Source: a virus
Length of the DNA: 64,000 bases
Reading direction: 5' to 3' (one strand)
Virus genome (UHGV): UHGV-0038492
Shown here: positions 27,167 to 55,059 of the stretch, piece by piece
Numbering within the stretch: position 1 is the stretch's first letter
Layout: the number at the start of each line of letters is the position of its first letter
Made by a program: the position numbers and the translations under genes
The notes under the pieces: model-generated
The model's input: only the letters and a program-made list of their open reading frames with translations
Told to the model about the DNA's origin: nothing
The model's database searches: none

Positions 27167-27360
27167 AAATTTGGTTGCCGATTGTAGTTTTTATCGTTAT
27201 TGCAGGGGCTTTAGCGAATGCCGAGTACGACTCTCGTACTTTAGAAACGAAACGTGAATTGTACCAGGACTGTATAAAGGATTATACACCGGGCACAGAA
27301 CTTCATGCGCAAGCTGTAAAAAGCTGTGCGCTGATGGCTGAATCGCAGACTCGTTCCTAA
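27163..27360 (+). CDS. small membrane protein, tandem paralog
   Basis: 65 aa; WLPIVVFIVIAGALA helix; shares RxxLYxxC...C pattern with the previous ORF. Confidence 0.5.
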   Translation: MKIWLPIVVFIVIAGALANAEYDSRTLETKRELYQDCIKDYTPGTELHAQAVKSCALMAESQTRS

Positions 27361-27734
27361 TGCGTATCTGGACGCTACAACTCGCTAAGTGGCGGTTAGC
27401 TAAGCAGAAAGGATTTCACGCAGTGGATATCACTGTGAAGTCAGGGCGGAAGGAACTCGCCCCCGACTGGGATTTCCTAATGGCGTATAAAAACTCTGCC
27501 CAAGACGCCGCCGCTGAGCGTGAATACACGATAAAGTATTTGTACAAGCTCGAACGACTGTTAGATGCCGATGCCGAAACGTTGGTCTCGTTGCTTAGAC
27601 ACGAAGATTTGGTTTTGATGTGTTATTGTCCCGCAGGTAAGTTTTGTCATCGTCACCTACTGGCGAGCAAACTTCAAGAAGTAGGAATGATGTTCGGTAT
27701 CGATGTTGAGTTGTGTGGCGAATTAACCGAATGA
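27360..27734 (+). CDS. hypothetical protein with Cys/His cluster
   Basis: 124 aa; CYCPAGKFCHRH could be a metal-binding site; terminator downstream. Confidence 0.55.
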   Translation: MRIWTLQLAKWRLAKQKGFHAVDITVKSGRKELAPDWDFLMAYKNSAQDAAAEREYTIKYLYKLERLLDADAETLVSLLRHEDLVLMCYCPAGKFCHRHLLASKLQEVGMMFGIDVELCGELTE

Positions 27735-27859: not shown

Positions 27860-28423
27860 GTGGCCACATCTTACGTACCTGATTTGAGTCTGACCTCAGC
27901 AGAGCTAGTGGTCGCTTTAATCAATCATGATAACGGGTTACAGCTTACACTAAACGAAATCCGTATTAGCGGAACTGTAACAAACCCATCCCCAACAACT
28001 TCGCGACGTAACACTATCACCGAAATCAGTAAAATCAGAAAACCAGATGGTGCGTCTGTTGTGGTTTACTACGACAGACTTGACGCCGATGAGGTATTAA
28101 CGTCCGAACCTATTTTGATTTCGTTAGACGGTACCGAAGCGAACATTCGTGATGTGCTTAGTGTTGTAAATGAATACTGCGGTACGAATTTACAACCTGA
28201 GGACTTACGTGCCTCAGATATTACTTCAGGTAATGATCCTATTGCTATTAACGTTGCTGACGATTCTCCTGCCTGGATGAATGCGTTTATGGTGACGTTG
28301 TTTGATAAAACCGAACGTGCGTTAGCGAACGAAGAAGATGAAATCTTCTGCATCGGTGACGATAGCGTTCTTACATTCGAGGTTACAGATGGCGACAGCA
28401 CTGAAGAAGACGAGACTCCATGA
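27860..28423 (+). CDS. fibre-associated small protein, family member 1
   Basis: GTG start after GGAGGG; homologous to ORF 38024 (PDLSLTS..., ...NLQPEDL); directly precedes a fibre gene. Confidence 0.65.
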   Translation: MATSYVPDLSLTSAELVVALINHDNGLQLTLNEIRISGTVTNPSPTTSRRNTITEISKIRKPDGASVVVYYDRLDADEVLTSEPILISLDGTEANIRDVLSVVNEYCGTNLQPEDLRASDITSGNDPIAINVADDSPAWMNAFMVTLFDKTERALANEEDEIFCIGDDSVLTFEVTDGDSTEEDETP

Positions 28424-28850
28424 GCTCGAAAGCTACGCAGGCACACCCCAAGGCGGGGTACTGCTGTATAGCAAAGACAATAAAGAATATAAAATTGATG
28501 TTGATAAGTTAGCCCCGGTTGCGACAGTCACCACGGTTAACGGTTCGAATAATGCCGCCACGTTGGATTTCAATACCAGCACTGACATTATTCTGGTGTT
28601 AAACGATCCTAACACTACAGTGACGTTCGCAGCCCTTACCAACGTTGCAGAAAATACCCGTTTCGAAGTAATGCTAACGATTAAGCAAGGAACAGGGGCG
28701 AATAAAGTAACCTGGCCTGAAAACGTTAAATGGCCTCACGGTGCACAACCGGTTTTATCCTACGCGGCAAATGCGGAAGACACTCTGTCGCTTTATACCC
28801 TTGATGGGGGTGCCACCTGGAAAGGTTCTCTTCTTGCAGCGGGTTACTAA
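28389..28850 (+). CDS. short tail-fibre-like protein with conserved N-terminal anchor motif
   Basis: Internal ATG at 28389 with GAGG RBS gives MATALKKTRLHELESYAGTPQGGVLLYSKD, homologous to the N-termini of ORFs 31938 and 38539. Confidence 0.6.
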   Translation: MATALKKTRLHELESYAGTPQGGVLLYSKDNKEYKIDVDKLAPVATVTTVNGSNNAATLDFNTSTDIILVLNDPNTTVTFAALTNVAENTRFEVMLTIKQGTGANKVTWPENVKWPHGAQPVLSYAANAEDTLSLYTLDGGATWKGSLLAAGY

Positions 28851-31800
28851 ATGAGAAAACATTTTCAGCGTCACGCGATTAGCTACGCGTTATCGTTAGC
28901 TTACGGACACCAATCCTTCGTTACCCGGAATACGGGAACGACTCACGACGCGCACAACGAACACTATATTCAAAACGAAGAAGGTGTTCTGTCGAATAAC
29001 CGTCATTTCATTGCTGACACTATGGCGGAATACCAACCGAACGGGGATGCGACGACCGAGGGTCAGTCGTTACACGTTATTGGTTACTGCCACATGTATA
29101 TCGCGACGAAAGACGAAAGATGGTTAGATGCGGCGAAACGTGCCTGGGATGCGTACAACACGTACTTCTACGTCGGACAACCTATTCCGACCACACCCCA
29201 GCGTCGTATTTGTAACTGGTTGGTAAACGGGAAAGAACCGGTATTAGCACATTATCCAATACATCCTACAGAACCTACCCAAGGTGGGTATAAAAGCGTT
29301 CCTGTAAGGTTTACAAACGGACAGTGTAAAATACCGCATGGTGCACCGTTCTGGGGAGAGTATTTGGATACCTTTACGTTTGCGCATCGTGGTCACCCTG
29401 CCTGGGAAGCCATTAACGCAGACGTACAGATTATCAAGGAAGACAAAGAAGGGTCAATTAATTGGGAAGATGTTTTAACTCACGTTATTACCAATCCTGA
29501 TAAACCCTACGAGGCCAAAGCGTGGGTTGATTGGCCTACGTTATTAAACAACGCTACAGGGTACACCCCGCTTTGGGGTGGGAGCGCAACAAAAGCCCCT
29601 AAACACGACGTTGACTGGATAATTGCCTGGACAGGTAACAAAATCCAGGACAGTGAGATTATTGAAACAGGATTAGCAGATGCTGATAAAGGTACCGTAC
29701 AGTTAAAAGACACGCAGTTAAACGGTGTCTATTTGATTAACTACGCGGTAAAACTGCCTGTCGAACACGGTGGTTACGAGTTTAAACGTAACGAACCGTG
29801 GCACAACCGTCCAGTTCACACGCCGTTCTTAGGATCGAAAAACCAATACGGTAACGCCGCTGATGCTGAACTGTGGTTTATTGACGCCTGTTATTTGCTG
29901 TGGCGAATCACGGGTGAAGAGAAATACAAACAAGCATTAGACTGTACTTTCTACACAGCACACGAGTACACGTATATTGATGCGGTAGATAAATTCTTCC
30001 GTCGTTCTACCGCTGCGGAAACACCGTTTACGGACGGCATTTCGTACGACTTCAATTACCCGGACACCGTAAGTGCTACATACGGCCGTGATGAGAATGG
30101 GGATATTACCATCCATGTGCCTGAAGCGGCACAACACTTTATGGAGCAGAAAGCGGTTCGATTCAGGATTAACAAAGACTCCAAACTACGTGTCACGTAC
30201 GGCGGGGTTTGTAAGAACGGCGATCCTGTCTACTGTAAAGCAATGGTAAACATTAACCCTGTGAAAGCTGATACCGAGGAAGTAAACTGGTACGGTTTAA
30301 CTTTACCTCGGTCTACGGTAAATACCGTTAAGCAGTACGATGTTGACTTAGGCCAACTTGCCCGTATTAGCACCCCAGAAGGGGAAGATTACCTGATAGC
30401 TGATGACCGTGCGTGTTCGGACTATGGTGGTTGTACGTGGGAAGAACGTTTTGAGGACAGCATTTACGACGGTCGCGCGGGTACCGTTATAGAAGCTGAA
30501 TTTCCTGATGACGGTGCCGGGTTTATTATCGGGTTCTGGTTAACCGCTGAAGAGAAGGTAAAACCGGTTTCTATTGTCTACCGTGCGGACGCAGATTTTA
30601 ACCTGCGTTTAGCTGACAGCGATAAGTGGCGTTGGTGGTGGATGTTACCCAACACAAACAACGAATGGCGTCAGGTAACGTTAAATCCGGATGATGCCAC
30701 ACTTTCCAGTTATCAGCCGGACCACACAGACGACGACCCTAAACCGGCAGCGCCGAATTTCGATAAGGTGGATCAGGTCACGATTCTCCCTGACTCTACG
30801 GTTGACCATGCGCACTTTGCTTACTATTGTGTTAACGATGTTCCACCGCTCTTTAATAAAGACGACGGTTATATTCTCACCTTCCGTATTGGGTTACGCG
30901 GCGGTGGAGAGTTTGATGCGAAGGTCGGCGACTGTACGATCAAAGATTACCGTTTGGATTCGTTAGCGTATTGTCCGGGTACGATACCGTTCTCGAACAA
31001 CTATTCAGAAGGTTCAGAACAGTTAGGTGCTTGGCACGGGATGCCTTATCCGGGTTATCAGTATCCGTTTATGTACACTATCCACAAAGACGACCGGTAT
31101 AAGCTGTGGTTAGATAACCAGATTCAATTCATGTACGATTCGCAGTTGGCTTACCAACGGCAGCTCGGTGAATTAGGGCCTGGTTGTGCAGCTTATATTT
31201 GGAACCGTTGGGACAACTACACCTACGGAGAAGCGGATACCTGGACAACGTTCCATTGGAGCGACGACCATCCGTGGCCAGGGTATCAACCTCGTGCGTT
31301 TCATGCTGCGTGTCGTTGCTGGTACGAACTGAAACTAAGAGGTAAAGAGGTTCCTGAAGCGTTAACAAGCTATATTGAAAACTGGGTGAATTGGCTAGGT
31401 GGGTTTGTGGATCGGTTTAACGGACACACCCCTAACGAGTTTCCTACAGCACCGAATAAACCCGTTTGGGTGGAAGATGACTTCAACGCACATATGTGTG
31501 CGTTGTGGTTAGCAGGCTGTTGTTGGGCATTACTCGCTGGTGCAACGAATCCGAACTACGATAAGGTAGTTAATGCGGCAATTAAGGAGTTAGGTGAAGG
31601 GTTTACGATTACCTCAATTCCGAATAAGCCGATTAACGGGGCGTGGTCTCCAGCCGCTCGAGAGTCTTCCGATAACGGTATGGCTTTTGGGTTCTACAGT
31701 GGGGAAGCGTTCCGTGCGTTAGGTCTCTACGTTACTTACAAAACTTACGGAGCCAACGCTAATATTTATCGTGACTTAGCGATTACTGACCACAGTCAAG

Positions 31801-31856
31801 CGGTTTTAGACGTTACGTTAACGATAGAAGACGATGCATTAAAACCAGAGCAATAA
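28851..31856 (+). CDS. large tail-associated protein, possible glycan hydrolase/depolymerase
   Basis: 1001-aa ORF between two fibre genes; Trp/Tyr/Asp-rich composition typical of carbohydrate-active enzymes; no motif-level proof. Confidence 0.7.
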   Translation: MRKHFQRHAISYALSLAYGHQSFVTRNTGTTHDAHNEHYIQNEEGVLSNNRHFIADTMAEYQPNGDATTEGQSLHVIGYCHMYIATKDERWLDAAKRAWDAYNTYFYVGQPIPTTPQRRICNWLVNGKEPVLAHYPIHPTEPTQGGYKSVPVRFTNGQCKIPHGAPFWGEYLDTFTFAHRGHPAWEAINADVQIIKEDKEGSINWEDVLTHVITNPDKPYEAKAWVDWPTLLNNATGYTPLWGGSATKAPKHDVDWIIAWTGNKIQDSEIIETGLADADKGTVQLKDTQLNGVYLINYAVKLPVEHGGYEFKRNEPWHNRPVHTPFLGSKNQYGNAADAELWFIDACYLLWRITGEEKYKQALDCTFYTAHEYTYIDAVDKFFRRSTAAETPFTDGISYDFNYPDTVSATYGRDENGDITIHVPEAAQHFMEQKAVRFRINKDSKLRVTYGGVCKNGDPVYCKAMVNINPVKADTEEVNWYGLTLPRSTVNTVKQYDVDLGQLARISTPEGEDYLIADDRACSDYGGCTWEERFEDSIYDGRAGTVIEAEFPDDGAGFIIGFWLTAEEKVKPVSIVYRADADFNLRLADSDKWRWWWMLPNTNNEWRQVTLNPDDATLSSYQPDHTDDDPKPAAPNFDKVDQVTILPDSTVDHAHFAYYCVNDVPPLFNKDDGYILTFRIGLRGGGEFDAKVGDCTIKDYRLDSLAYCPGTIPFSNNYSEGSEQLGAWHGMPYPGYQYPFMYTIHKDDRYKLWLDNQIQFMYDSQLAYQRQLGELGPGCAAYIWNRWDNYTYGEADTWTTFHWSDDHPWPGYQPRAFHAACRCWYELKLRGKEVPEALTSYIENWVNWLGGFVDRFNGHTPNEFPTAPNKPVWVEDDFNAHMCALWLAGCCWALLAGATNPNYDKVVNAAIKELGEGFTITSIPNKPINGAWSPAARESSDNGMAFGFYSGEAFRALGLYVTYKTYGANANIYRDLAITDHSQAVLDVTLTIEDDALKPEQ

Positions 31857-31937: not shown

Positions 31938-34900
31938 ATGGCAAAAGCGGTAAAGAAAATACGATTACATAATCTTAGACCATATACCGGTGATATCGGT
32001 GAAGGCGTTTTACTTTTCTCCAAGGATGAGAAAGATTATAAGTTACCAGTCCGTGAGATCATTGCGGATATTGACACCGTACGTAATGCGGTGGCTGAAG
32101 CACAGACAGCAGCAACACAATCACAAGAAGCTGCAACTCAGGCTACACAAGCAAAGAATTTAGCAGAAACAGCAAAACAACAAACTGACACCGTTGCAGC
32201 TACGGTTGCTCAACAAGCGCAAACTGTAACCGAAAAAGCAACTGAAGTCGGTACAAAACACACTGAAGTGTTAGCCGCGAAAACTGCGGTAGACGAAGTA
32301 TCAGTGTCGGTGAATGAGAAGGCTCAAGCTGTCGCCGCAAGCGAACAATCGGTGACGGCTGCTGCGGCTGATGTAACTAAGAAAGCAGAAACGGTTGCGC
32401 AACAGGCCGGACAAGTTCAACAGACGGCTACCAGCGTCGCAAATACTGCGGCATCAGTTGAGGCCAGTAAAGGTGCAGTGGAGAAAATTGCTGCGCAGGT
32501 CACGAAAGATAAAGAAACGTCGGAGGGCGCGGCTACCCGCTCAGAAGCGGCCGCACAACGTGCTGAGAAAATCGCCGCCCAAGGCTTAGTTGACGCTAGT
32601 ACGATCGGTAAAGGCATCGTTAAACTTAACGATACCCTGACTAGTGAATCCGTGACGGAGGCTGCCACGCCGTCCACGGTTAAACAGCTGAACGACGAAT
32701 TACAGTTAAAAGCCAATAAACATTCGCCGAATTTTACGGGTAAACCGACATCCCCAAAACCGCCGAAGGACTCGAATGACACGAGCATCTCCACAACGTC
32801 CTGGGTGCGTGACGCGATTGCTGAATTGGTTGGTTCCTCACCCGAGACGTTAAATACCTTAGCGGAATTAGCAGAGGCGTTAGGTAATGACCCTAACTTC
32901 GCAACAACGATCACTGAGGAGCTTGCGCAGAAGCAACCTATCAGCCCATTACTCACCGCAATCGCTGCGGTTACAAGTGCAGCAAACAAACTCCTGTATT
33001 TCACGGGCTCTAATAAAGTCGAGTTAACCGATTTTACAGAAACTGCCAGATCCTTGTTAGCGAAAGGGTCAACTGCGGATATTATTAACTTCCTGGGTTT
33101 GAAACCCACCGTTGATAAAGCAAACGGCGCACTACAGAAAAACTCTAACGGTGCTGATATCCCAAATAAAGAAACTTTTGCTCGCAACATCGGCCTATCT
33201 CCTGATACCTATCTGCGTTTCCGTGGCAAAATGCCTGTAGATGCTGATATTAACACATTTGCTCCAGATGCTAATTACACAGGAACGTGGTCTAAGTCGA
33301 CATCAACCAATGCGTCGATGGCAAAACACTTCCCAGAAGACGGTGCAGTCGGTTATCTGGAAGTGTATAAAGCGGGCAACTACAGTGGCGCGCAACGTTT
33401 TACCTGTCGTAATGGTAACGTGTACAACCGTATGTTGTCAGCCGCGTGGAACGGAACTAATGGCCCGTGGTCGCCGTGGAGAATGGTAACTACCGGTGTA
33501 CGCCCGTTATCTACATCGATTGATCTGAACTCTTTAGGCGGTGCCGAACACATGGGTAACTGGCGTAACTCGTCCAGTTCGTTAGCGGTGTTTGACAGAC
33601 ATTATCCTGAAGAGGGCGGTGGCGCTCAAGGTGTTCTGGAAGTCATGGAAGGTGGTCTTTACGGACGGTTGCAGCGATACACTACGCGTCGTGGCACAAT
33701 GTATGTCCGTGGTTTGACTGCAACATGGGATTCATCAAACCCACAATGGGAAGATTGGATTCAGGTTGGTTATCAGACTGACGGTGCTTTCTTTAAAGCC
33801 AATTTTAACGATCTCGTTAAACCGGGTCGTTTCAGTGTCACTGGTCAGGCAACTAACGGCCCACTTACCGGTTCTTCTGGCGAAACCATATTAGGCGTTT
33901 GTGAAGTTACCTTACGCTTAGACGGTACAGGGGTCGAACAGAATTATACCACATACGGCACGGGTGCAGAAACTAAAGGTCGTAAATTCCAACGTATCCG
34001 TACGGGTAACATTTGGAGCGATTGGCGTGAGGTTTTCACATCCTATTCGCTTCCGTTGGCCTTAGGTATCGGTGGGGTTGCTGCCAAGGTCGATCCGTTA
34101 GACTGGCAAACCTTCGACTTCGTTCCTGGCCAGATGATAAGCACACCGTTGAATACCATGAAAAACATTCCTGCGGGAATGGATTGGGGTGTTATTGACG
34201 GTAACTTGGTCACTATTCTTGTAGGGGCGTCGGAGGACACCGGTACTGGTCGGAGTATGTTGGTCTGGCGTGGTACAGTGTCTACTGCTAACTATCGCTT
34301 CTTTGCAGTACGTATCGCCGGTGAGAAGGGTAGCCGTACGATTACGCCACGACAGATGCCTGTGTTAAATGCAGCACACACTTGGGCCGAGAAACAAACG
34401 TTCTCTAAAGGCTTAGCGGGTGAATTGACAGGTAATGCGTCAACGGCAACGAAACTGAAAACAGCCCGTTTAATCGGTGGTGTAAGTTTCGACGGCACTA
34501 GCGACATTCCACTCCCTGGTGTTAACCAGCAAGGTAATCAAAACACCACTGGGAACGCGGGAACCGCAACCAAATTACAAACGGCTCGAAACATCAACGG
34601 TGTGAAATTCGATGGCTCTAGAGACATCAATATCAACACCTTGGTAGGACGTGGACGTGTTACTGCACTGACGGGATCAAACAAAGGTACGCCTGGTATT
34701 CAGATGTACGAAGTTTACAATAACGGTTATCCGACCGCTTATGGTAACTTATTGCATTTGGGTGGTGCTACTGCGCTAGGCGAAGGCGAGTTGTTAATCG
34801 GATGGTCGGGGACGAGTGGTGCGCACGCGCCAGTTTATATTCGTAGCCGACGTGATACGGCTGACGCGCCGTGGTCAGATTGGGCACAAGTTTATACTGC

Positions 34901-36497
34901 CCGTGACAGCATTCCTGGCGTAAATGCCACAGGTAATCAAGATACTACCGGCAATGCCGCTACCGCGACGAAACTGAAAACCGCTCGCAGAATTGGAGGC
35001 GTTACCTTTGACGGTACTGGGGATATCAATTTACCGGGGGTTAACCAAGCCGGTAACCAGAATACGTCAGGTAATGCTGCGACAGCGACTAAACTTCAGA
35101 CTGCGCGAAATATAGGCGGTGTGGCTTTTGATGGTACTAAAGACATCAGTTTACCTGGTGTAAACCAGACGGGTAATCAGTCGACTACCGGAAACGCAGC
35201 CACGGCCACAAAGTTGCAGACAGCTCGTACCATTAACGGTATCCCATTTGACGGCACTAGAAATATATCGTTAGGGCCTGCCGATATAGGTTGCCCGGCA
35301 TCACCTAGTGGTTGGTTAGAAACTGGCGCTGATGGCGCTGCAATAACTACAGCACAGCTAGTGACGTTATTGAAAAATAACGGCGCGTTTACCACAAGAT
35401 CGTGGGTTGCTCGCTGCGCATGGGCTTATGCCGCTAGTGCAAGTATACCTCATAGCGAGACGGGTTGTGGTGTTATTCCATTAGCTGGGGCTGTTATAGA
35501 AGTGATTAGTAACGGCAACAGCACAAACAACTACACGATCCGTATAACGACCGCCACAACGACGAGCGTCTCCGGCGCACTCACTAATGCGGAGTTTATC
35601 TACGTATTTAACGGCGATACTTACTCACCAGGTTGGCGTCGCGTGTACAATACGAGAAACAAGCCAACTGCTGCGGATGTTGGGGCGTTGCCATTATCTG
35701 GCGGTCAGTTGAATGGCGCGTTGGGTATTGGAACCACTAATGCTTTAGGTGGGAACTCCATAGTTTTAGGGGATAATGACACCGGCCTTAAGCAGAACGG
35801 GGATGGCGTTCTAGATGTTTACGCCAATAATGCTCATGTTTTACGCTTTACGAGTGGGGCTGTTCAAAGCAATAAACCTCTCAACGTTACCGGAGATATA
35901 AGAACCAATACTTGGGTTTATGCAAATAGATATTCTATTAACAGCAACTCAGGTTCTTGGATTAGCATGAGAGACCATAACGTTATTTTTGGTCTTAATC
36001 CGGTAGGAACTAGTTCTGCTCAGGCATTGTTAAGACAAGACCATGCTGATAGGAAATTTTTTGTTGGTGGTTTAGGTAACTATCAATTCGGCTTTTACAT
36101 GATAAACAACTCACGTACTGATAATGGCACCGATGCTAATGCTTATTTGCAAAACGACGGTACTTGGGTTTGTGGTGGGAACGGTAACTTTAACGACGTT
36201 TATATACGATCTGACGCCCGGCTGAAAAGTAATTTCTCTCCAATAACTAATGCATTGGAGAAGGTAAAGGAATTGTCAGGTTTAATATACGACAAAAAGG
36301 AGAACTTTAAATCCACTAATGTTCATCGTGAGGCTGGTGTTGTAGCGCAGACCTTACAAAAAGTGTTACCTGAAGCAGTTTCTACTTATAAAGACGCTAA
36401 TGGTGAGGACGTTTTGACGGTCTCTAACTCTGCACAAATAGCTCTACTTATTGAAGCAATAAAGGAGTTGGCGGAGATAATTGAGACCAAGTTATAA
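31938..36497 (+). CDS. long tail fibre protein with C-terminal intramolecular chaperone (peptidase S74-like) domain
   Basis: 1519 aa; conserved N-terminal anchor; Ala/Gln/Thr-rich helical stretch; four knob-like repeats ending W-x-x-W; five copies of the TGNAATATKLQTAR...FDG fibre repeat; C-terminal SDARLKSN motif of endosialidase/T5-fibre-type self-cleaving chaperones. Confidence 0.9.
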   Translation: MAKAVKKIRLHNLRPYTGDIGEGVLLFSKDEKDYKLPVREIIADIDTVRNAVAEAQTAATQSQEAATQATQAKNLAETAKQQTDTVAATVAQQAQTVTEKATEVGTKHTEVLAAKTAVDEVSVSVNEKAQAVAASEQSVTAAAADVTKKAETVAQQAGQVQQTATSVANTAASVEASKGAVEKIAAQVTKDKETSEGAATRSEAAAQRAEKIAAQGLVDASTIGKGIVKLNDTLTSESVTEAATPSTVKQLNDELQLKANKHSPNFTGKPTSPKPPKDSNDTSISTTSWVRDAIAELVGSSPETLNTLAELAEALGNDPNFATTITEELAQKQPISPLLTAIAAVTSAANKLLYFTGSNKVELTDFTETARSLLAKGSTADIINFLGLKPTVDKANGALQKNSNGADIPNKETFARNIGLSPDTYLRFRGKMPVDADINTFAPDANYTGTWSKSTSTNASMAKHFPEDGAVGYLEVYKAGNYSGAQRFTCRNGNVYNRMLSAAWNGTNGPWSPWRMVTTGVRPLSTSIDLNSLGGAEHMGNWRNSSSSLAVFDRHYPEEGGGAQGVLEVMEGGLYGRLQRYTTRRGTMYVRGLTATWDSSNPQWEDWIQVGYQTDGAFFKANFNDLVKPGRFSVTGQATNGPLTGSSGETILGVCEVTLRLDGTGVEQNYTTYGTGAETKGRKFQRIRTGNIWSDWREVFTSYSLPLALGIGGVAAKVDPLDWQTFDFVPGQMISTPLNTMKNIPAGMDWGVIDGNLVTILVGASEDTGTGRSMLVWRGTVSTANYRFFAVRIAGEKGSRTITPRQMPVLNAAHTWAEKQTFSKGLAGELTGNASTATKLKTARLIGGVSFDGTSDIPLPGVNQQGNQNTTGNAGTATKLQTARNINGVKFDGSRDININTLVGRGRVTALTGSNKGTPGIQMYEVYNNGYPTAYGNLLHLGGATALGEGELLIGWSGTSGAHAPVYIRSRRDTADAPWSDWAQVYTARDSIPGVNATGNQDTTGNAATATKLKTARRIGGVTFDGTGDINLPGVNQAGNQNTSGNAATATKLQTARNIGGVAFDGTKDISLPGVNQTGNQSTTGNAATATKLQTARTINGIPFDGTRNISLGPADIGCPASPSGWLETGADGAAITTAQLVTLLKNNGAFTTRSWVARCAWAYAASASIPHSETGCGVIPLAGAVIEVISNGNSTNNYTIRITTATTTSVSGALTNAEFIYVFNGDTYSPGWRRVYNTRNKPTAADVGALPLSGGQLNGALGIGTTNALGGNSIVLGDNDTGLKQNGDGVLDVYANNAHVLRFTSGAVQSNKPLNVTGDIRTNTWVYANRYSINSNSGSWISMRDHNVIFGLNPVGTSSAQALLRQDHADRKFFVGGLGNYQFGFYMINNSRTDNGTDANAYLQNDGTWVCGGNGNFNDVYIRSDARLKSNFSPITNALEKVKELSGLIYDKKENFKSTNVHREAGVVAQTLQKVLPEAVSTYKDANGEDVLTVSNSAQIALLIEAIKELAEIIETKL
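34428..35272 (+). repeat. in-frame tandem tail-fibre repeats (about 38 aa each), five copies interrupted by one knob-like domain
   Basis: Protein-level repeats GNQNTTGNAGTATKLQTARNINGVKFDGSRDI and variants; nucleotide copies are diverged. Confidence 0.8.
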
Positions 36498-36544: not shown

Positions 36545-37336
36545 GTGGTTATTTTGTCTGTATCAGCGACTCCCGGATGGATTGGTTCTTCAGCAAAAGC
36601 TGAAGCTGGTAATGGTTGGATGTCTGGCGCGATGCACACACTCGGTGTGCCAGTTCCAGGCTGGATGTCGCAATTGGCGGGAAAATCAAAAGAGGCTCAG
36701 TATTCGATCGGGGCTAATCACAATTACAATAAAGATACGCTTATTAACTATTTACGTTCCATAGGCTCTACTGCTGTCGTTGTGACCATTACAGGGGATT
36801 TAGTGTCTTATAGTAGCGGGGTTCCTTGTTTAGAGTTCCCTAGCAATCTTCCAAATTCGTATATTACCCTCATCATCAATCCTGGGGTTACAGTATACGG
36901 CAGAGGAGGCAACGGCGGTTCTAACTCACCAGGCGGTGCAGGTGGAACCGCAATACAGAACGGAATAGGAAACAGACTGCGTATAACCAACCGTGGCGCT
37001 ATTGCCGGAGGCGGTGGCGGCGGTGGCGGCGGTAACAGGGGTAGACTAATATTTGGTGGTGGCGGTGGTCGCCCATTCGGTGCTGGTGGGTCTTCCTCTC
37101 ATATGAGTTCCGGTGCGGCTGCTGGTACTATTTCCGCTCCTGGTAGAGGATCTGTTGGTGAGGGGTCTCTTAGTGCATATACAGGCGGTTCGGGTGGTAA
37201 TGTCGGTGCTGGTGGAGGAAGATGTAATACTCATGGTAACGGTACAGAATATAACGGCGGAGCAGCTGGTGCAGCTGTTACTGGTAATGCGCCAAGATGG
37301 GACGCAGTAGGTGCAATATACGGTTCACGTGTTTAA
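36545..37336 (+). CDS. glycine-rich fibre-associated protein
   Basis: 263 aa; run of nine Gly encoded by (GGN)9 and overall Gly/Ala/Ser-rich C-terminal part; N-terminus homologous to next ORF; start may be GTG 36545 or TTG 36554. Confidence 0.65.
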   Translation: MVILSVSATPGWIGSSAKAEAGNGWMSGAMHTLGVPVPGWMSQLAGKSKEAQYSIGANHNYNKDTLINYLRSIGSTAVVVTITGDLVSYSSGVPCLEFPSNLPNSYITLIINPGVTVYGRGGNGGSNSPGGAGGTAIQNGIGNRLRITNRGAIAGGGGGGGGGNRGRLIFGGGGGRPFGAGGSSSHMSSGAAAGTISAPGRGSVGEGSLSAYTGGSGGNVGAGGGRCNTHGNGTEYNGGAAGAAVTGNAPRWDAVGAIYGSRV

Positions 37337-37352: not shown

Positions 37353-37865
37353 ATGGGGGTAGCGTCAGGATGGGTCGGATCTTCAGCTAAGAATGAAACT
37401 GGCCAACAATGGATGAGCGCTGCGGGTAGTAAATTAGGATTGGGTAGACCTTTTATGATGAGCCAAATGGTAGGCAAGTCCGTAGGTTGCAAAATAGCAA
37501 CAGCTTATTATAAAACGTCAAATACTGATAAAGTAGAGAACTGGGGTGCTGTCGGAGCCGATTGGCCGTTGGTAGATAAGAACAAAGGAACGCTTTCTGG
37601 TGCCTCGAACTGTGGCTTAGGACGTTTAGTGGGGATCGTACTTACGCAAGCTCACTACATTTCTGGTGTTCCACCCACTGCGGCTTTATACATCGCAGGA
37701 GGAAGGGCAAGTAATATTACAGTAACAGTTGGTGGTGTTTCGCAAGCATTTACTTACGATAGTGTTATTAACGGTTTTCACTATTATTGGCAAGGAACGC
37801 CTAGTTCGGCCTTTATAGCGGCAATGAAGAAGACGGGTGTTACACAAGATTTGAAAGTTAGCTAA
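37353..37865 (+). CDS. paralog of the Gly-rich protein N-terminal domain
   Basis: AAAGGAGGG RBS; MGVASGWVGSSAKNETGQQWMSAAG aligns with SVSATPGWIGSSAKAEAGNGWMSGA of the upstream ORF. Confidence 0.65.
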   Translation: MGVASGWVGSSAKNETGQQWMSAAGSKLGLGRPFMMSQMVGKSVGCKIATAYYKTSNTDKVENWGAVGADWPLVDKNKGTLSGASNCGLGRLVGIVLTQAHYISGVPPTAALYIAGGRASNITVTVGGVSQAFTYDSVINGFHYYWQGTPSSAFIAAMKKTGVTQDLKVS

Positions 37866-38023: not shown

Positions 38024-38536
38024 GTGGAACAATTCACGCCAGATTTGTCGTTAACTTCACTTAACATGGTTATTTCACTGGTTAACCATGACCTCCAGCT
38101 TGACTTGCAAGAGAACGAGGTTGAAGTCAGCGACGTAAAGACCAGTAACGAAATGGATCGTGACACCACTGCTGTTGTAAAGATAAAACGTCCCGGTAAC
38201 AGAACGTTACAAATCTATTACAACCGTTTAACCGCAGAACGTTGGTTAAACCAGCAACCTATTCTGGTGCAAGTAACTGGAGAGGGGTTTAACACACACG
38301 ATTTAATCGATGCGATTAACGCAGCCTGTGGTAGTAACCTGCAACCCGAAGATCTTCAGGACGATTCATTTACAGTAGGAAAAGACGCTGTAACGTTACA
38401 GGTATCACCTAACTCCCTAAGTTATAAAGGCCAATTCTCTGTTTTGGTTTTTGGTAACGGCGAAGAGGCCGCAGTAACAAAAGATGACAACCTAATCGTT
38501 ACCGCAGATAATCGCGTCTTAACCTTTGGAGGTTAA
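38024..38536 (+). CDS. fibre-associated small protein, family member 2
   Basis: GTG start after AGGAGG; homologous to ORF 27860; precedes a fibre gene. Confidence 0.65.
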   Translation: MEQFTPDLSLTSLNMVISLVNHDLQLDLQENEVEVSDVKTSNEMDRDTTAVVKIKRPGNRTLQIYYNRLTAERWLNQQPILVQVTGEGFNTHDLIDAINAACGSNLQPEDLQDDSFTVGKDAVTLQVSPNSLSYKGQFSVLVFGNGEEAAVTKDDNLIVTADNRVLTFGG

Positions 38537-38538
38537 CA

Positions 38539-39159
38539 GTGGCTGAACTGGTAGGAAAGGTACGCATTCACGAGCTACCGTCACTTTCAGAAGACATTAC
38601 TGGTGTGGTGGTGTTAGCGTCTAAGGAACAAACCGAATACCAACTCCCGATTGAGAATTTAGGGGGTGGTGAGGTTACAGTGAGTCCGTCAGCGAATAAC
38701 ATCCTTAAGTCTAACAGCGATGGACTGTTTGTTGATGGCGCACATCCTATTGTACCGAAAATGGATGCAAAAACCTTATCGGGAAATATGGTGGTAGAAA
38801 AAACGCTGACAGGTGGTGCGGTAATCTGCAAAACAACGGTTGACGTTAATAATAGGCTGGGGATTTCGCAATTATCTGGGGTGTCAATTTATAGCCAGTG
38901 CCTGCTGGAAAATAAATTGGTTTACCTGGCAGAAGACGGCAGTATTATTGATGCGTACTTCTACATTAGTAATACAAAGAACACGGCCAGTACAATAACC
39001 CACACCATTCGGGTTGTCTTAGCGAAAGTACCTTCTAAAGTTGTCGATATCACCGATTTATCTGAAACTGAGGTGCAGTATCAGGATGCTAATTTGCCTG
39101 TTAAGATCGTTATTAAGCATCTTACAGGGACAACACTTTCCCAGAACGGAATGAAATAA
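38539..39159 (+). CDS. short tail-fibre-like protein with conserved N-terminal anchor motif
   Basis: GTG start after GGAGG; N-terminus MAELVGKVRIHELPSLSEDITGVVVLASKEQTEYQL homologous to ORFs 28389 and 31938; terminator downstream. Confidence 0.65.
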   Translation: MAELVGKVRIHELPSLSEDITGVVVLASKEQTEYQLPIENLGGGEVTVSPSANNILKSNSDGLFVDGAHPIVPKMDAKTLSGNMVVEKTLTGGAVICKTTVDVNNRLGISQLSGVSIYSQCLLENKLVYLAEDGSIIDAYFYISNTKNTASTITHTIRVVLAKVPSKVVDITDLSETEVQYQDANLPVKIVIKHLTGTTLSQNGMK

Positions 39160-53226: not shown

Positions 53227-53774
53227 TCATCGTCTCCTTTAATCAATCCTAATTCGATTAACAGTTCAAAATCGATATGACGGAATCTTGTATCAAAATC
53301 CGATTCCCAATCGATGCGGATACCCTGGCACTCTTCTGATGTTAGCTCGGGAAAAATTACGGTATTAAATTTCTCACGCTCATCGTAAAACCCATCAATC
53401 GGTGAGTTCGGGTTACGCGTTGCGAAAATAGTAATACCAGGGAAAGATAATGCTAACACAGTGATAGATTCTGCGCTGGGCTCACTTAAAGAGCGGCGTA
53501 GAAACGCAATTTTGTGGCGTGGGAAGTCCAATACGCGTTCTTCAAACCCTGGATTACGTTTTTCGATTTCCGCTACCGACAGGTCAGTAAGTTCGGTGCA
53601 ATACATTGGGATGATTACAGTCACGCCGTGGCGAATCAGTAAACGTTTTACGTCATCGGTAAAATCTTCGCCGTTAATCATCACGTAACAACCGAACAGC
53701 TTACTGTTTTCCAGAAACTTATCCAGAAGTCGAATTCTACGCTTCGTAATATTGTTGATCAGAATTGGTTTCAT
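53202..53774 (-). CDS. hypothetical protein co-operonic with radical-SAM enzymes
   Basis: 190-aa ORF overlapping both neighbours. Confidence 0.6.
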   Translation of the reverse strand: MKPILINNITKRRIRLLDKFLENSKLFGCYVMINGEDFTDDVKRLLIRHGVTVIIPMYCTELTDLSVAEIEKRNPGFEERVLDFPRHKIAFLRRSLSEPSAESITVLALSFPGITIFATRNPNSPIDGFYDEREKFNTVIFPELTSEECQGIRIDWESDFDTRFRHIDFELLIELGLIKGDDECLLLVKA

Positions 53775-55059
53775 CTTTGGCTTCTCTTAATAATTTTTCC
53801 TTTTGGGCGCGTTCACGAACACAGCGTGGGCAATAACACATACTCGTGTCGTGGAACGCTTTTGCTGACGTCGTACCCATCTTCTGTTTCCAGTATTCCG
53901 CCACCATCAGTTTCGCTGTCGTCCACCCGCACTGACGTCGCTCAGCGTGATACGCTTTACGGTCTTCCAGTGTCCCTTCACCGTTTTCGTAAGAAGCCGC
54001 AGCGCAGCTACCACAAGCGTGTTTCATCGGACAACCTAAGCACGTCTCTGGATAGTTGGTATATTGTGTTTGAATCTCTTCTAACAATTTACCGTTGTCC
54101 AGGCTGACGAATTCCCGACCTACCAACTCAAATACCGCAGAACGTGATGTTACGGTTGACATAAAGCGATTGCAACCGAAGATCTTACGGTCAAAACCTA
54201 AACACGTCATGTGTGTTAATGTCCCACAGAACGGACGTAAACGTTCTGGGTTCAACCGCACCGTGTCATTATAAAGTAATTGATCACGCCAGTTCGGTTC
54301 CCAAATCGTATCGAAATCCAACCCTTCTGGGATGATGTGCGATAAGATATTACGTGGGTTGGTGTGTAATCCTTTCTCGACCCAATAATCAATCACATCC
54401 ATCATCTGCAATGCAATTGAAGTAGCCATCCCACGTGGCATAATGTCTTCGAAGGTTACGTTGCCGGAGATAGTTCCGCCACCAGTAATATCAATTAATG
54501 ACTTCATTCCGGCAGCATAGTACGGTAACGTTTCTAACGTAAAGGTCGCCTTTACGCCAAGCTCTGCAATGCCAACCTCTTTTAAGTAGTTATAGCCTCG
54601 TACTGCGGCTTCGTAAGAACCCTGGCGCGTCGTTGTAAAGATACGATAACGGTCATGGGACTCAGGTAAGCCGTCAATTGAAACCCCAACCGAAAGTTTG
54701 TCTTTCCAACGCTCTACGATCTCACGGTTCAACGGGCGATCTAACAACGTCCCGTTTGTGGAAATACTAAACATAAACGGCCGATTATGTTCTTTACACA
54801 ACTGCTCGGCGGTTTCAAATGCAGCCAGCAGCAACTTAGGCTGCATGAACGGTTCACCACCGATAATGTCAATAATAACTTCAACATTCGGTTCGTTTTT
54901 ATCGCGTTCAAAACAGGCGTGCAAGAAATCAACAATATCTGCCGCTTTGTTGTTACGCGGGTACTTACGTTCGTAACAATATTCGCAGTCCAGGTTACAC
55001 GAAAGGTTCGTTACAATCTGATACGTTAGCTGCTTAGGGAATTCATTTACCTGACTCAT
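53737..55059 (-). CDS. radical SAM enzyme with C-terminal SPASM-like Cys cluster (anSME/peptide-maturase-like)
   Basis: N-terminal CNLDCEYC (CxxxCxxC), GGEPFM SAM-binding motif, and C-terminal cysteines (CLGCPMKHACGSC...CYCPRC) typical of auxiliary Fe-S clusters. Confidence 0.75.
   Translation of the reverse strand: MSQVNEFPKQLTYQIVTNLSCNLDCEYCYERKYPRNNKAADIVDFLHACFERDKNEPNVEVIIDIIGGEPFMQPKLLLAAFETAEQLCKEHNRPFMFSISTNGTLLDRPLNREIVERWKDKLSVGVSIDGLPESHDRYRIFTTTRQGSYEAAVRGYNYLKEVGIAELGVKATFTLETLPYYAAGMKSLIDITGGGTISGNVTFEDIMPRGMATSIALQMMDVIDYWVEKGLHTNPRNILSHIIPEGLDFDTIWEPNWRDQLLYNDTVRLNPERLRPFCGTLTHMTCLGFDRKIFGCNRFMSTVTSRSAVFELVGREFVSLDNGKLLEEIQTQYTNYPETCLGCPMKHACGSCAAASYENGEGTLEDRKAYHAERRQCGWTTAKLMVAEYWKQKMGTTSAKAFHDTSMCYCPRCVRERAQKEKLLREAKDETNSDQQYYEA

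Follow-up and report, generated by a model that had tools for sequence, protein, structure and literature searches.

An open reading frame (ORF) set among tail fibre genes of a phage raises the question of what its product does on the virion and how it is held there. The DNA is UHGV virus genome UHGV-0038492, and the whole stretch of 64,000 nucleotides that was analysed is here called the window. The ORF, at 28851..31856 on the plus strand, encodes a protein of 1001 residues, which the original prediction took for a possible virion-borne polysaccharide hydrolase riding on the short fibre encoded just upstream. We favour, as the probable explanation, a glycanase at the tail periphery that belongs to a family similar to, but distinct from, glycoside hydrolase families 8 and 126 (GH8, GH126), is mounted on a 153-residue adaptor, binds glycan through inserts resembling carbohydrate-binding modules (CBM), and uses E70 and D338 in catalysis.

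A widespread family of phage tail proteins

The ORF is genuine, has an ATG start, and agrees in coordinates and length with the first description. A chance ORF can be excluded because the product matches PHROG 2871 ('tail protein') with E=0 over residues 6-983 and has homologues in 536 phage records; homology is full-length, with at least 80% of the query covered in 521 phage records. The closest proteins are gp141 of Erwinia phage Asesino (77% identity) and gp124 of Salmonella phage SPN3US (72%), followed by those of phi92-like phages and Phapecoctavirus (about 41%) and of rV5-like phages (27%). A metagenome database holds proteins that are 98-44% identical, and a 98%-identical copy lies in a 73-kb Logan contig with unchanged gene order. 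No near DNA match to the window was found in the phage collection, and the window belongs to a new jumbo phage of SPN3US/Asesino type.

Searches of Pfam and NCBIfam at normal thresholds assign no family to the protein, and phmmer and profile searches of PDB sequences gave no match. The protein nevertheless joins a known, widespread family (SPN3US gp124, Asesino gp141, phi92 gp141, rV5 gp42 and ORF17 of phage S144) whose members resemble it over their full length and have the same small upstream partner, and for which a putative glycosidase label is already in use. For this window, the result is mainly the confident annotation of one more family member. Among homologues the annotation drifts between 'tail formation protein GpI', 'glycosyl hydrolase', 'tail fiber' and 'colanic acid degradation'. 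Two records of about 135 kb, MG065654.1 and MG065658.1 ('Campylobacter phage C15/C7'), match in the manner of Vequintavirus coliphages (27%, same span), and their host label may be questionable.

The position inside a fibre module was correctly recognised, with a small tail fibre gene upstream and a gene for a long fibre of 1519 residues downstream. The unusual composition is also real: compared with all long ORFs of the window, Trp (3.6%) is enriched 2.6-fold, Tyr 1.5-fold, Pro 1.4-fold and Asp 1.3-fold, as had been claimed, to which His (1.8-fold) and Cys (1.5-fold) can be added.

Predicted fold

The original prediction had guessed, from composition, an alpha/alpha-barrel glycosidase fold. 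AlphaFold2 run from the single sequence was useless (predicted local distance difference test, pLDDT, 32); fed with an alignment of 63 homologues, it gave a confident model (pLDDT 90.7, predicted template modelling score 0.86) that is an (alpha/alpha)6 barrel, so that the guess is correct on the strength of this model and of its structural matches. The predicted barrel is discontinuous, being made of 11 long helices (residues 2-26, 69-86, 89-106, 337-354, 357-372, 751-772, 812-829, 836-855, 880-895, 902-917 and 947-966), with beta-rich inserts at residues 107-336 and 373-750. A purely non-enzymatic beta-structure, the outcome that would have spoken against an enzyme, is therefore not what the model predicts, and the acidic residues E70 and D338 are invariant in the family.

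Whole-chain Foldseek searches of the PDB returned low TM-scores only, with GH48, GH78, GH116 and CBM11 at high probability, a muddled result that we ascribe to the discontinuity of the barrel. The model matches 3ren_B, the GH8-type protein CPF_2247, over 324 of 332 residues at 2.8 Å (listed value 31.0). CPF_2247 of C. perfringens (PDB 3REN) is the founding member of GH126. Further matches of the model are GH105 (27.3), GH76 and a GH8 endoglucanase (25.9 each) and YteR (25.5), with GH88 and GH48 (about 23-24), cellobiose/GlcNAc 2-epimerases (21-25) and terpene cyclases (about 17-22) lower down. Pfam gives weak matches to other six-hairpin families, namely GH47 and GH127 (best E 4e-4).

With such relatives, the same scaffold might support another chemistry, that of an unsaturated-uronyl hydrolase (GH88/GH105-like), a polysaccharide lyase or an epimerase/isomerase-type enzyme. 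We think this improbable: at the level of single residues, matches were found solely to the GH8 acid motif and the signature Asp described below, and GH88/GH105 enzymes need unsaturated ends made by a lyase, a partner of which the module shows no sign.

Mapped onto the plus strand of the window, the first barrel segment of the model (residues 1-106, helices 2-26, 69-86 and 89-106) is encoded at 28851..29168 and contains the motif TTE70GQS, in which E70 (codon 29058-29060) is the candidate proton donor. It is followed by insert 1 (residues 107-336; 29169..29858), delimited by model and conservation as a beta-rich domain. Residues 201-260 are its most variable part, conserved loops (R313, N314, H318, N319, R320) return from it to the barrel, and its site holds extra domains in the homologues P0012, P0017 and P0029. 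Barrel segment 2 (residues 337-372, helices 337-354 and 357-372; 29859..29966) is likewise defined by model and conservation, and is introduced by the motif G-N335-A-A-D338-A-E340-L-W342 (D338 codon 29862-29864). Insert 2 (residues 373-750; 29967..31100) is predicted to consist of beta-sandwich domains, as judged from model, Foldseek, PHROG and conservation. It contains a CBM-like jelly roll at about residues 489-666 that includes the invariant D589 and coincides with a match to PHROG 23426 (489-666); Foldseek finds a CBM11-like beta-sandwich (6r31, 1v0a) with probability 1.0. The loops 373-400 and 701-750, which lead back into the barrel, are highly conserved, and the sandwich is duplicated in the homologues P0042 and P0044. 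Barrel segment 3 of the model (residues 751-966, with the six helices from 751-772 to 947-966; 31101..31748) has the invariant residues W784, R786 and R815 and the near-invariant D788 and E952. Both segments that had been quoted as resembling alpha/alpha-barrel hydrolases, at residues 798 and 877, fall within it.

Domain shuffling is seen elsewhere in the family as well: besides the duplicated sandwich there are a fusion to gpI (P0082), a C-terminal podophage Gp77 adaptor (P0111), an RCC1 insertion (P0118) and C-terminal Big_2 extensions (P0013).

Conserved residues and the relation to GH8

An alignment of 129 family members that are 27-98% identical, including rV5-like, Vibrio, Rosemountvirus and Kolesnikvirus representatives, shows 11 residues conserved in every member: E70, Q72, D338, R384, D589, Y733, Q737, Q765, W784, R786 and R815. 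Five further acidic residues, E340, D377, D395, D788 and E952, are almost invariant. The conserved residues concentrate in the long loops ahead of alternate barrel helices.

For comparison with GH8, a profile of E. coli BcsZ and 124 diverse representatives was aligned by hhalign with a barrel-only profile of the family. Local mode gave one collinear alignment of 233-277 columns that places ATTE70GQS on TTSE55GQS and GNAAD338AELW on NSASD116GDVW of the GH8 signature region of BcsZ. E55 is the catalytic acid of BcsZ. When the motifs are relaxed, the pair occurs in the same order in 104 of 120 family members and in 173 of 270 GH8 proteins, and in none of 20000 shuffles of the 1001-residue protein, a test that is post hoc because the motifs were defined after the match had been seen.

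Two points weigh against a GH8-like glycanase. One is that the hhalign alignment is statistically weak (P 0.025-0.036, probability about 2%), and that the motifs align in local mode only, global alignment of the barrel and GH8 profiles having failed. With P only about 0.03 in local mode, we do not claim membership of GH8. The Pfam GH8 model PF01270 does not match the protein or 40 members even at E<=5, and the strict PROSITE-type signature of GH8, A-[ST]-D-[AG]-D-x2-[IM]-A-x-[SA]-[LIVM]-[LIVMG]-x-A-x3-[FW], which matches BcsZ at 114-132, is absent from the protein and from all 120 family members searched; only its first part is kept, as A-A-D-A-E-L-W. By every sequence criterion applied, then, the family is not a member of GH8. 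The other point concerns the base. Aligned by eye, Y782-I783-W784-N785-R786 lines up with Y-D243-A-I-R of GH8, so that the canonical base appears to be missing, AYI783WNR standing in the position of SYD243AIR. As GH8 subfamilies place the catalytic base at differing positions, its absence from one site is weak evidence. In our reading, the family shares a scaffold of GH8/GH126 type and two of the three key carboxylate positions.

Two other candidates for catalytic residues were dropped. D796, which hhalign pairs with the region of the GH8 base, is not conserved. A Cys nucleophile of GH127 type had suggested itself from 'GCC' in one of the quoted segments, but C890 and C891 are located within a barrel helix and show no conservation.

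An alternative is that the GH8-like cleft and the CBM-like sandwiches bind glycan only, so that the protein would be a pseudo-enzyme or lectin-like adhesin on the small fibre, a non-catalytic receptor-binding protein. The replacement of the canonical Asp by Ile/Val in the by-eye alignment would fit this, as would the variable stretches in the inserts, which are expected of specificity determinants; moreover, in the podovirus G1 discussed below, the barrel protein and its partner are the only product in the fibre slot and must at least bind the host. On the other hand, E70, D338 and many Arg, Gln, Trp and Tyr residues are invariant at 27-98% identity and across host orders, which is more typical of catalysis, as binding residues usually diversify with the host. 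Of the alternatives to the glycanase we rank this one highest, and still consider it unlikely.

The proposed upstream adaptor

The original prediction noted an anchor motif shared by fibres of this phage. The motif is real, and consists of about 40 similar N-terminal residues (MA..VKK.RLHEL..Y.G...GVLL.SKD.K.YK). A motif scan finds it in only three ORFs of the window: that of the small upstream protein, whose N-terminus reads MATALKKTRLHELESYAGTPQGGVLLYSKDNKEYKIDVDKL, that of the 1519-residue fibre (MAKAVKKIRLHNLRPYTGDIGEGVLLFSKDEKDYKLPVREI), and an ORF at 38539-39159. The 1001-residue protein lacks it, as had been said, its N-terminus being the first helix of the predicted barrel.

The small fibre or adaptor protein (28389..28850, plus strand; 153 residues) belongs to PHROG 9017 ('tail fiber protein'), and its extent is supported by a Shine-Dalgarno sequence, alignment, a hidden Markov model (HMM) and a gene call in the 98%-identical contig. 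Its start is likely the ATG at 28389, which has GAGG seven bases upstream, rather than the mechanically chosen ATG at 28338. The resulting protein resembles SPN3US gp123 (156 residues), its gene overlaps the preceding DUF7941 gene by 35 nucleotides, and the independent gene call on the contig gave the same 153 residues. The C-terminal part of about 100 residues is a conserved, Asp-box-like domain (QGTGANKV-WP-NVKWP-G-P-LS...D...DGG-TW-G), and an HMM of this domain has its sole match within the window here (E 7.6e-47) and recognises the upstream neighbour of the barrel gene in four further lineages (E<=1e-30). Partners in other phages have been named 'sialidase domain protein', apparently on account of a single Asp-box-like motif, S-x-D-x-G-x-T-W.

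The small gene lies directly upstream of the barrel gene in all 12 lineages examined: this window, SPN3US, Asesino, Phapecoctavirus, Vequintavirus, two Vibrio myo/large phages, Vibrio podovirus G1, Rosemountvirus, PMBT28, Asteriusvirus-like JP4 and Kolesnikvirus. The N-terminus of the partner, however, changes with the phage. It is the jumbo-phage anchor motif here, Tail_spike_N (PF18668) in Vequintavirus and collagen repeats in phage SJSY21, and in the T7-like Vibrio podovirus G1 it is the N domain of the T7 tail fibre (PF03906, E 1.7e-7), where the pair fills the gp17 slot between a gp16-like transglycosylase and the holin/terminase genes. In a P2-like prophage the barrel (residues 177-1083) is fused directly to gpI (PF09684, residues 6-142; E 7e-52) in a gene placed directly after V, W and J (P0082; L016 7001-10294).

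Constant pairing with swapped N-termini is the pattern that an arrangement of adaptor plus cargo predicts. This supports the original prediction on the short fibre, which probably carries the 1001-residue protein on the virion by a contact that we infer.

Tail location of an orthologue

Tail association has been observed by mass spectrometry in the orthologue SPN3US gp124. Tailed particles yielded 79, 72 and 64 spectra of this protein, and the tailless 64_112(am27) sup- particles yielded none (Thomas 2016, PMC5105663 Table S4), a pattern equal to that of the sheath, the tube and the gp168-171 baseplate/fibre proteins (PMC5105663). Both gp124 and gp123 are in the list of wild-type virion proteins, their abundance indices being close to the portal's (PMC5694885 Table S1). 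Of the more distant members, rV5 gp42 was detected in the phage proteome, and phi92 gp141 is entered as 'glycosidase', with reference to Schwarzer et al. 2012 (PMC5380687).

Tail association, and the name 'tail formation protein GpI' that several database records give to homologues, might also indicate an essential structural baseplate protein that recognises no glycan. This is very improbable, since Tail_P2_I (PF09684) has no match in the 1001-residue protein, being present only as the N-terminal fusion in P0082, and the GpI label comes from such gpI-barrel fusions.

Published annotations of relatives, phi92 gp141 among them, are in line with a glycanase. In the BASEL collection, the Vequintavirus homologue is a 'lateral tail fiber protein with glycosidase domains', and the BASEL authors suggested conserved glycan targets because such genes are conserved, not variable. 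For ORF17 of phage S144, HHpred pointed to a hydrolase and the protein 'did not resemble' a spike or fibre. In Vequintavirus Bas54, transposon mapping on E. coli K-12 showed that the phage can do without several of its lateral fibre genes, bas54_0026 among them. Judged by the numbering of Bas50 and Bas58, bas54_0026 is probably a member of this family; if so, its dispensability speaks against an essential structural role. A cryo-electron microscopy study of phi92 from 2026 shows fibre II without a gene assignment, for which gp140/gp141 are candidates, and in the literature we found no published biochemical characterisation or solved structure of any family member. Two further candidates for comparison, Gp23/Gp25 of ICP2 and 'gp38' of SD286 (a DUF protein of 123 residues), proved irrelevant.

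A possible mechanism

The glycanase that we favour would have a 'six-hairpin' (alpha/alpha)6 barrel core of GH8/GH126/GH48 type, from which the chain exits twice to build beta-sandwich domains. It is probably a monomer. The small fibre (28389-28850), as a trimer, would plug into the tail or baseplate by its N-terminal anchor motif, and its conserved C-terminal domain would hold the enzyme, which itself has no virion anchor. Upon contact with a cell, the beta-sandwich domains would bind surface glycan and the barrel cleft would cut it, with E70 as the acid, D338 assisting, and a water-activating base situated away from the GH8 position, for which D589, D377/D395, D788 and E952 are candidates. 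Cutting would thin or clear the polysaccharide layer, so allowing the long fibres and the baseplate to reach their receptors. Many Gammaproteobacteria probably share the glycan that serves as substrate, because the putative active-site residues do not vary among phages that infect Enterobacterales, Vibrio, Pseudomonas, Aeromonas and Acinetobacter.

Such a protein would differ from the enzymes that it most resembles. It is only about 10% identical to GH8 proteins (E. coli BcsZ, C. thermocellum CelA) and to CPF_2247, inserts of about 230 and about 380 residues interrupt its barrel, the canonical base Asp of GH8 appears not to be conserved, and it would be mounted on a virion, whereas GH8 enzymes are secreted or periplasmic. 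The proposed role, that of a virion-borne cutter at the tail periphery, is the role of tailspike depolymerases (P22 gp9, the K1F/phi92 endosialidase, CBA120 TSPs), which likewise attach by a modular N-terminal anchor or a separate adaptor. Classical tailspikes, however, are homotrimeric beta-helix or beta-propeller proteins with their own anchor, while the 1001-residue protein is predicted to be a globular barrel without one and is conserved, not hypervariable; a search of the protein found no tailspike Pfam domain, and its model has no right-handed beta-helix. The small partner is comparable to the T7 gp17 N-domain and to adaptors of K1E/K1-5/SP6 type in that its N-terminal domain fits the tail socket of the host phage and its C-terminal part would carry a receptor-destroying protein. 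It differs from them in that the putative docking domain of about 100 C-terminal residues, Asp-box-like, is a family of its own, and in that the anchor of this jumbo phage is a lineage-specific motif of about 40 residues common to two other fibres.

A more far-reaching proposal is that adaptor and barrel form a portable two-gene module that has spread in Gammaproteobacteria among myoviruses of jumbo, large and small size, T7-like podoviruses and P2-like prophages, and in which the barrel founds a new GH family near GH8/GH126, with a relocated base (possibly D589 in an inserted beta-sandwich), and cleaves a host-conserved glycan such as the lipopolysaccharide core or some other widely shared envelope polysaccharide, not a strain-specific capsule. 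Taken as a whole this is speculative, and we would call it doubtful.

Virion-borne glycanases determine the range of bacteria accessible to a phage and are sought as tools against biofilms and capsules. Almost all that have been characterised are trimeric, strain-variable beta-helix spikes. The present family differs in its monomer-like six-hairpin barrel, its conservation across many phage genera and its exchangeable adaptor mount. If activity and substrate were established, they would explain a conserved but uncharacterised component of the 'Swiss-army-knife' fibre sets that phi92/rV5-like and SPN3US-like phages possess, and might yield both an enzyme of broad spectrum and, for engineering, a mount that is portable.

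Neighbouring genes

The barrel gene is the last of a conserved trio, also kept in SPN3US and Asesino, that begins with a gene for a DUF7941 protein (27860..28423, plus strand; Pfam PF25613, E=1.6e-20), the equivalent of SPN3US gp122. This protein may be an assembly factor or a docking protein. Since gp122 is barely detected in SPN3US virions, an assembly factor may be the better description than a structural socket. In Phapecoctavirus, no homology was found between the DUF7941 protein and the product of the gene upstream of the pair. A DUF7941 paralogue (38024..38536, plus strand; 36% identity, E 4e-39) precedes the third gene with an anchor motif, which encodes a fibre of 206 residues (38539..39159, plus strand). 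As each paralogue stands directly upstream of an anchor-motif fibre gene, a duplicated cassette of DUF7941 and anchored fibre is suggested.

Downstream of the trio follow the 1519-residue long tail fibre (31938..36497, plus strand), which has Phage_fiber_2 repeats and a C-terminal S74 intramolecular chaperone besides the shared N-terminal anchor motif, and two tandem gp38-type adhesins recognised by profile matches, one a full GP38 and the other Gp38_N only (36545-37336 and 37353-37865). SPN3US and Asesino are without this fibre and these adhesins at the locus. The gp38 DNA is 77-82% identical to that of the Krischvirus phages JSE/Phi1. As the fibre carries the jumbo phage's own anchor motif, it looks chimeric, with a recently acquired fibre tip of T-even type. 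It is unusual to find an S74 chaperone combined with gp38 adhesins.

The gene just before the trio (27360-27734) specifies a DUF488-N3a family protein (Pfam E 7e-12), and SPN3US has one there too ('DUF488 family protein'). Farther along the window, at 53737-55059 on the minus strand, lies a gene for a radical SAM domain protein (PHROG 1802, E 8e-116).

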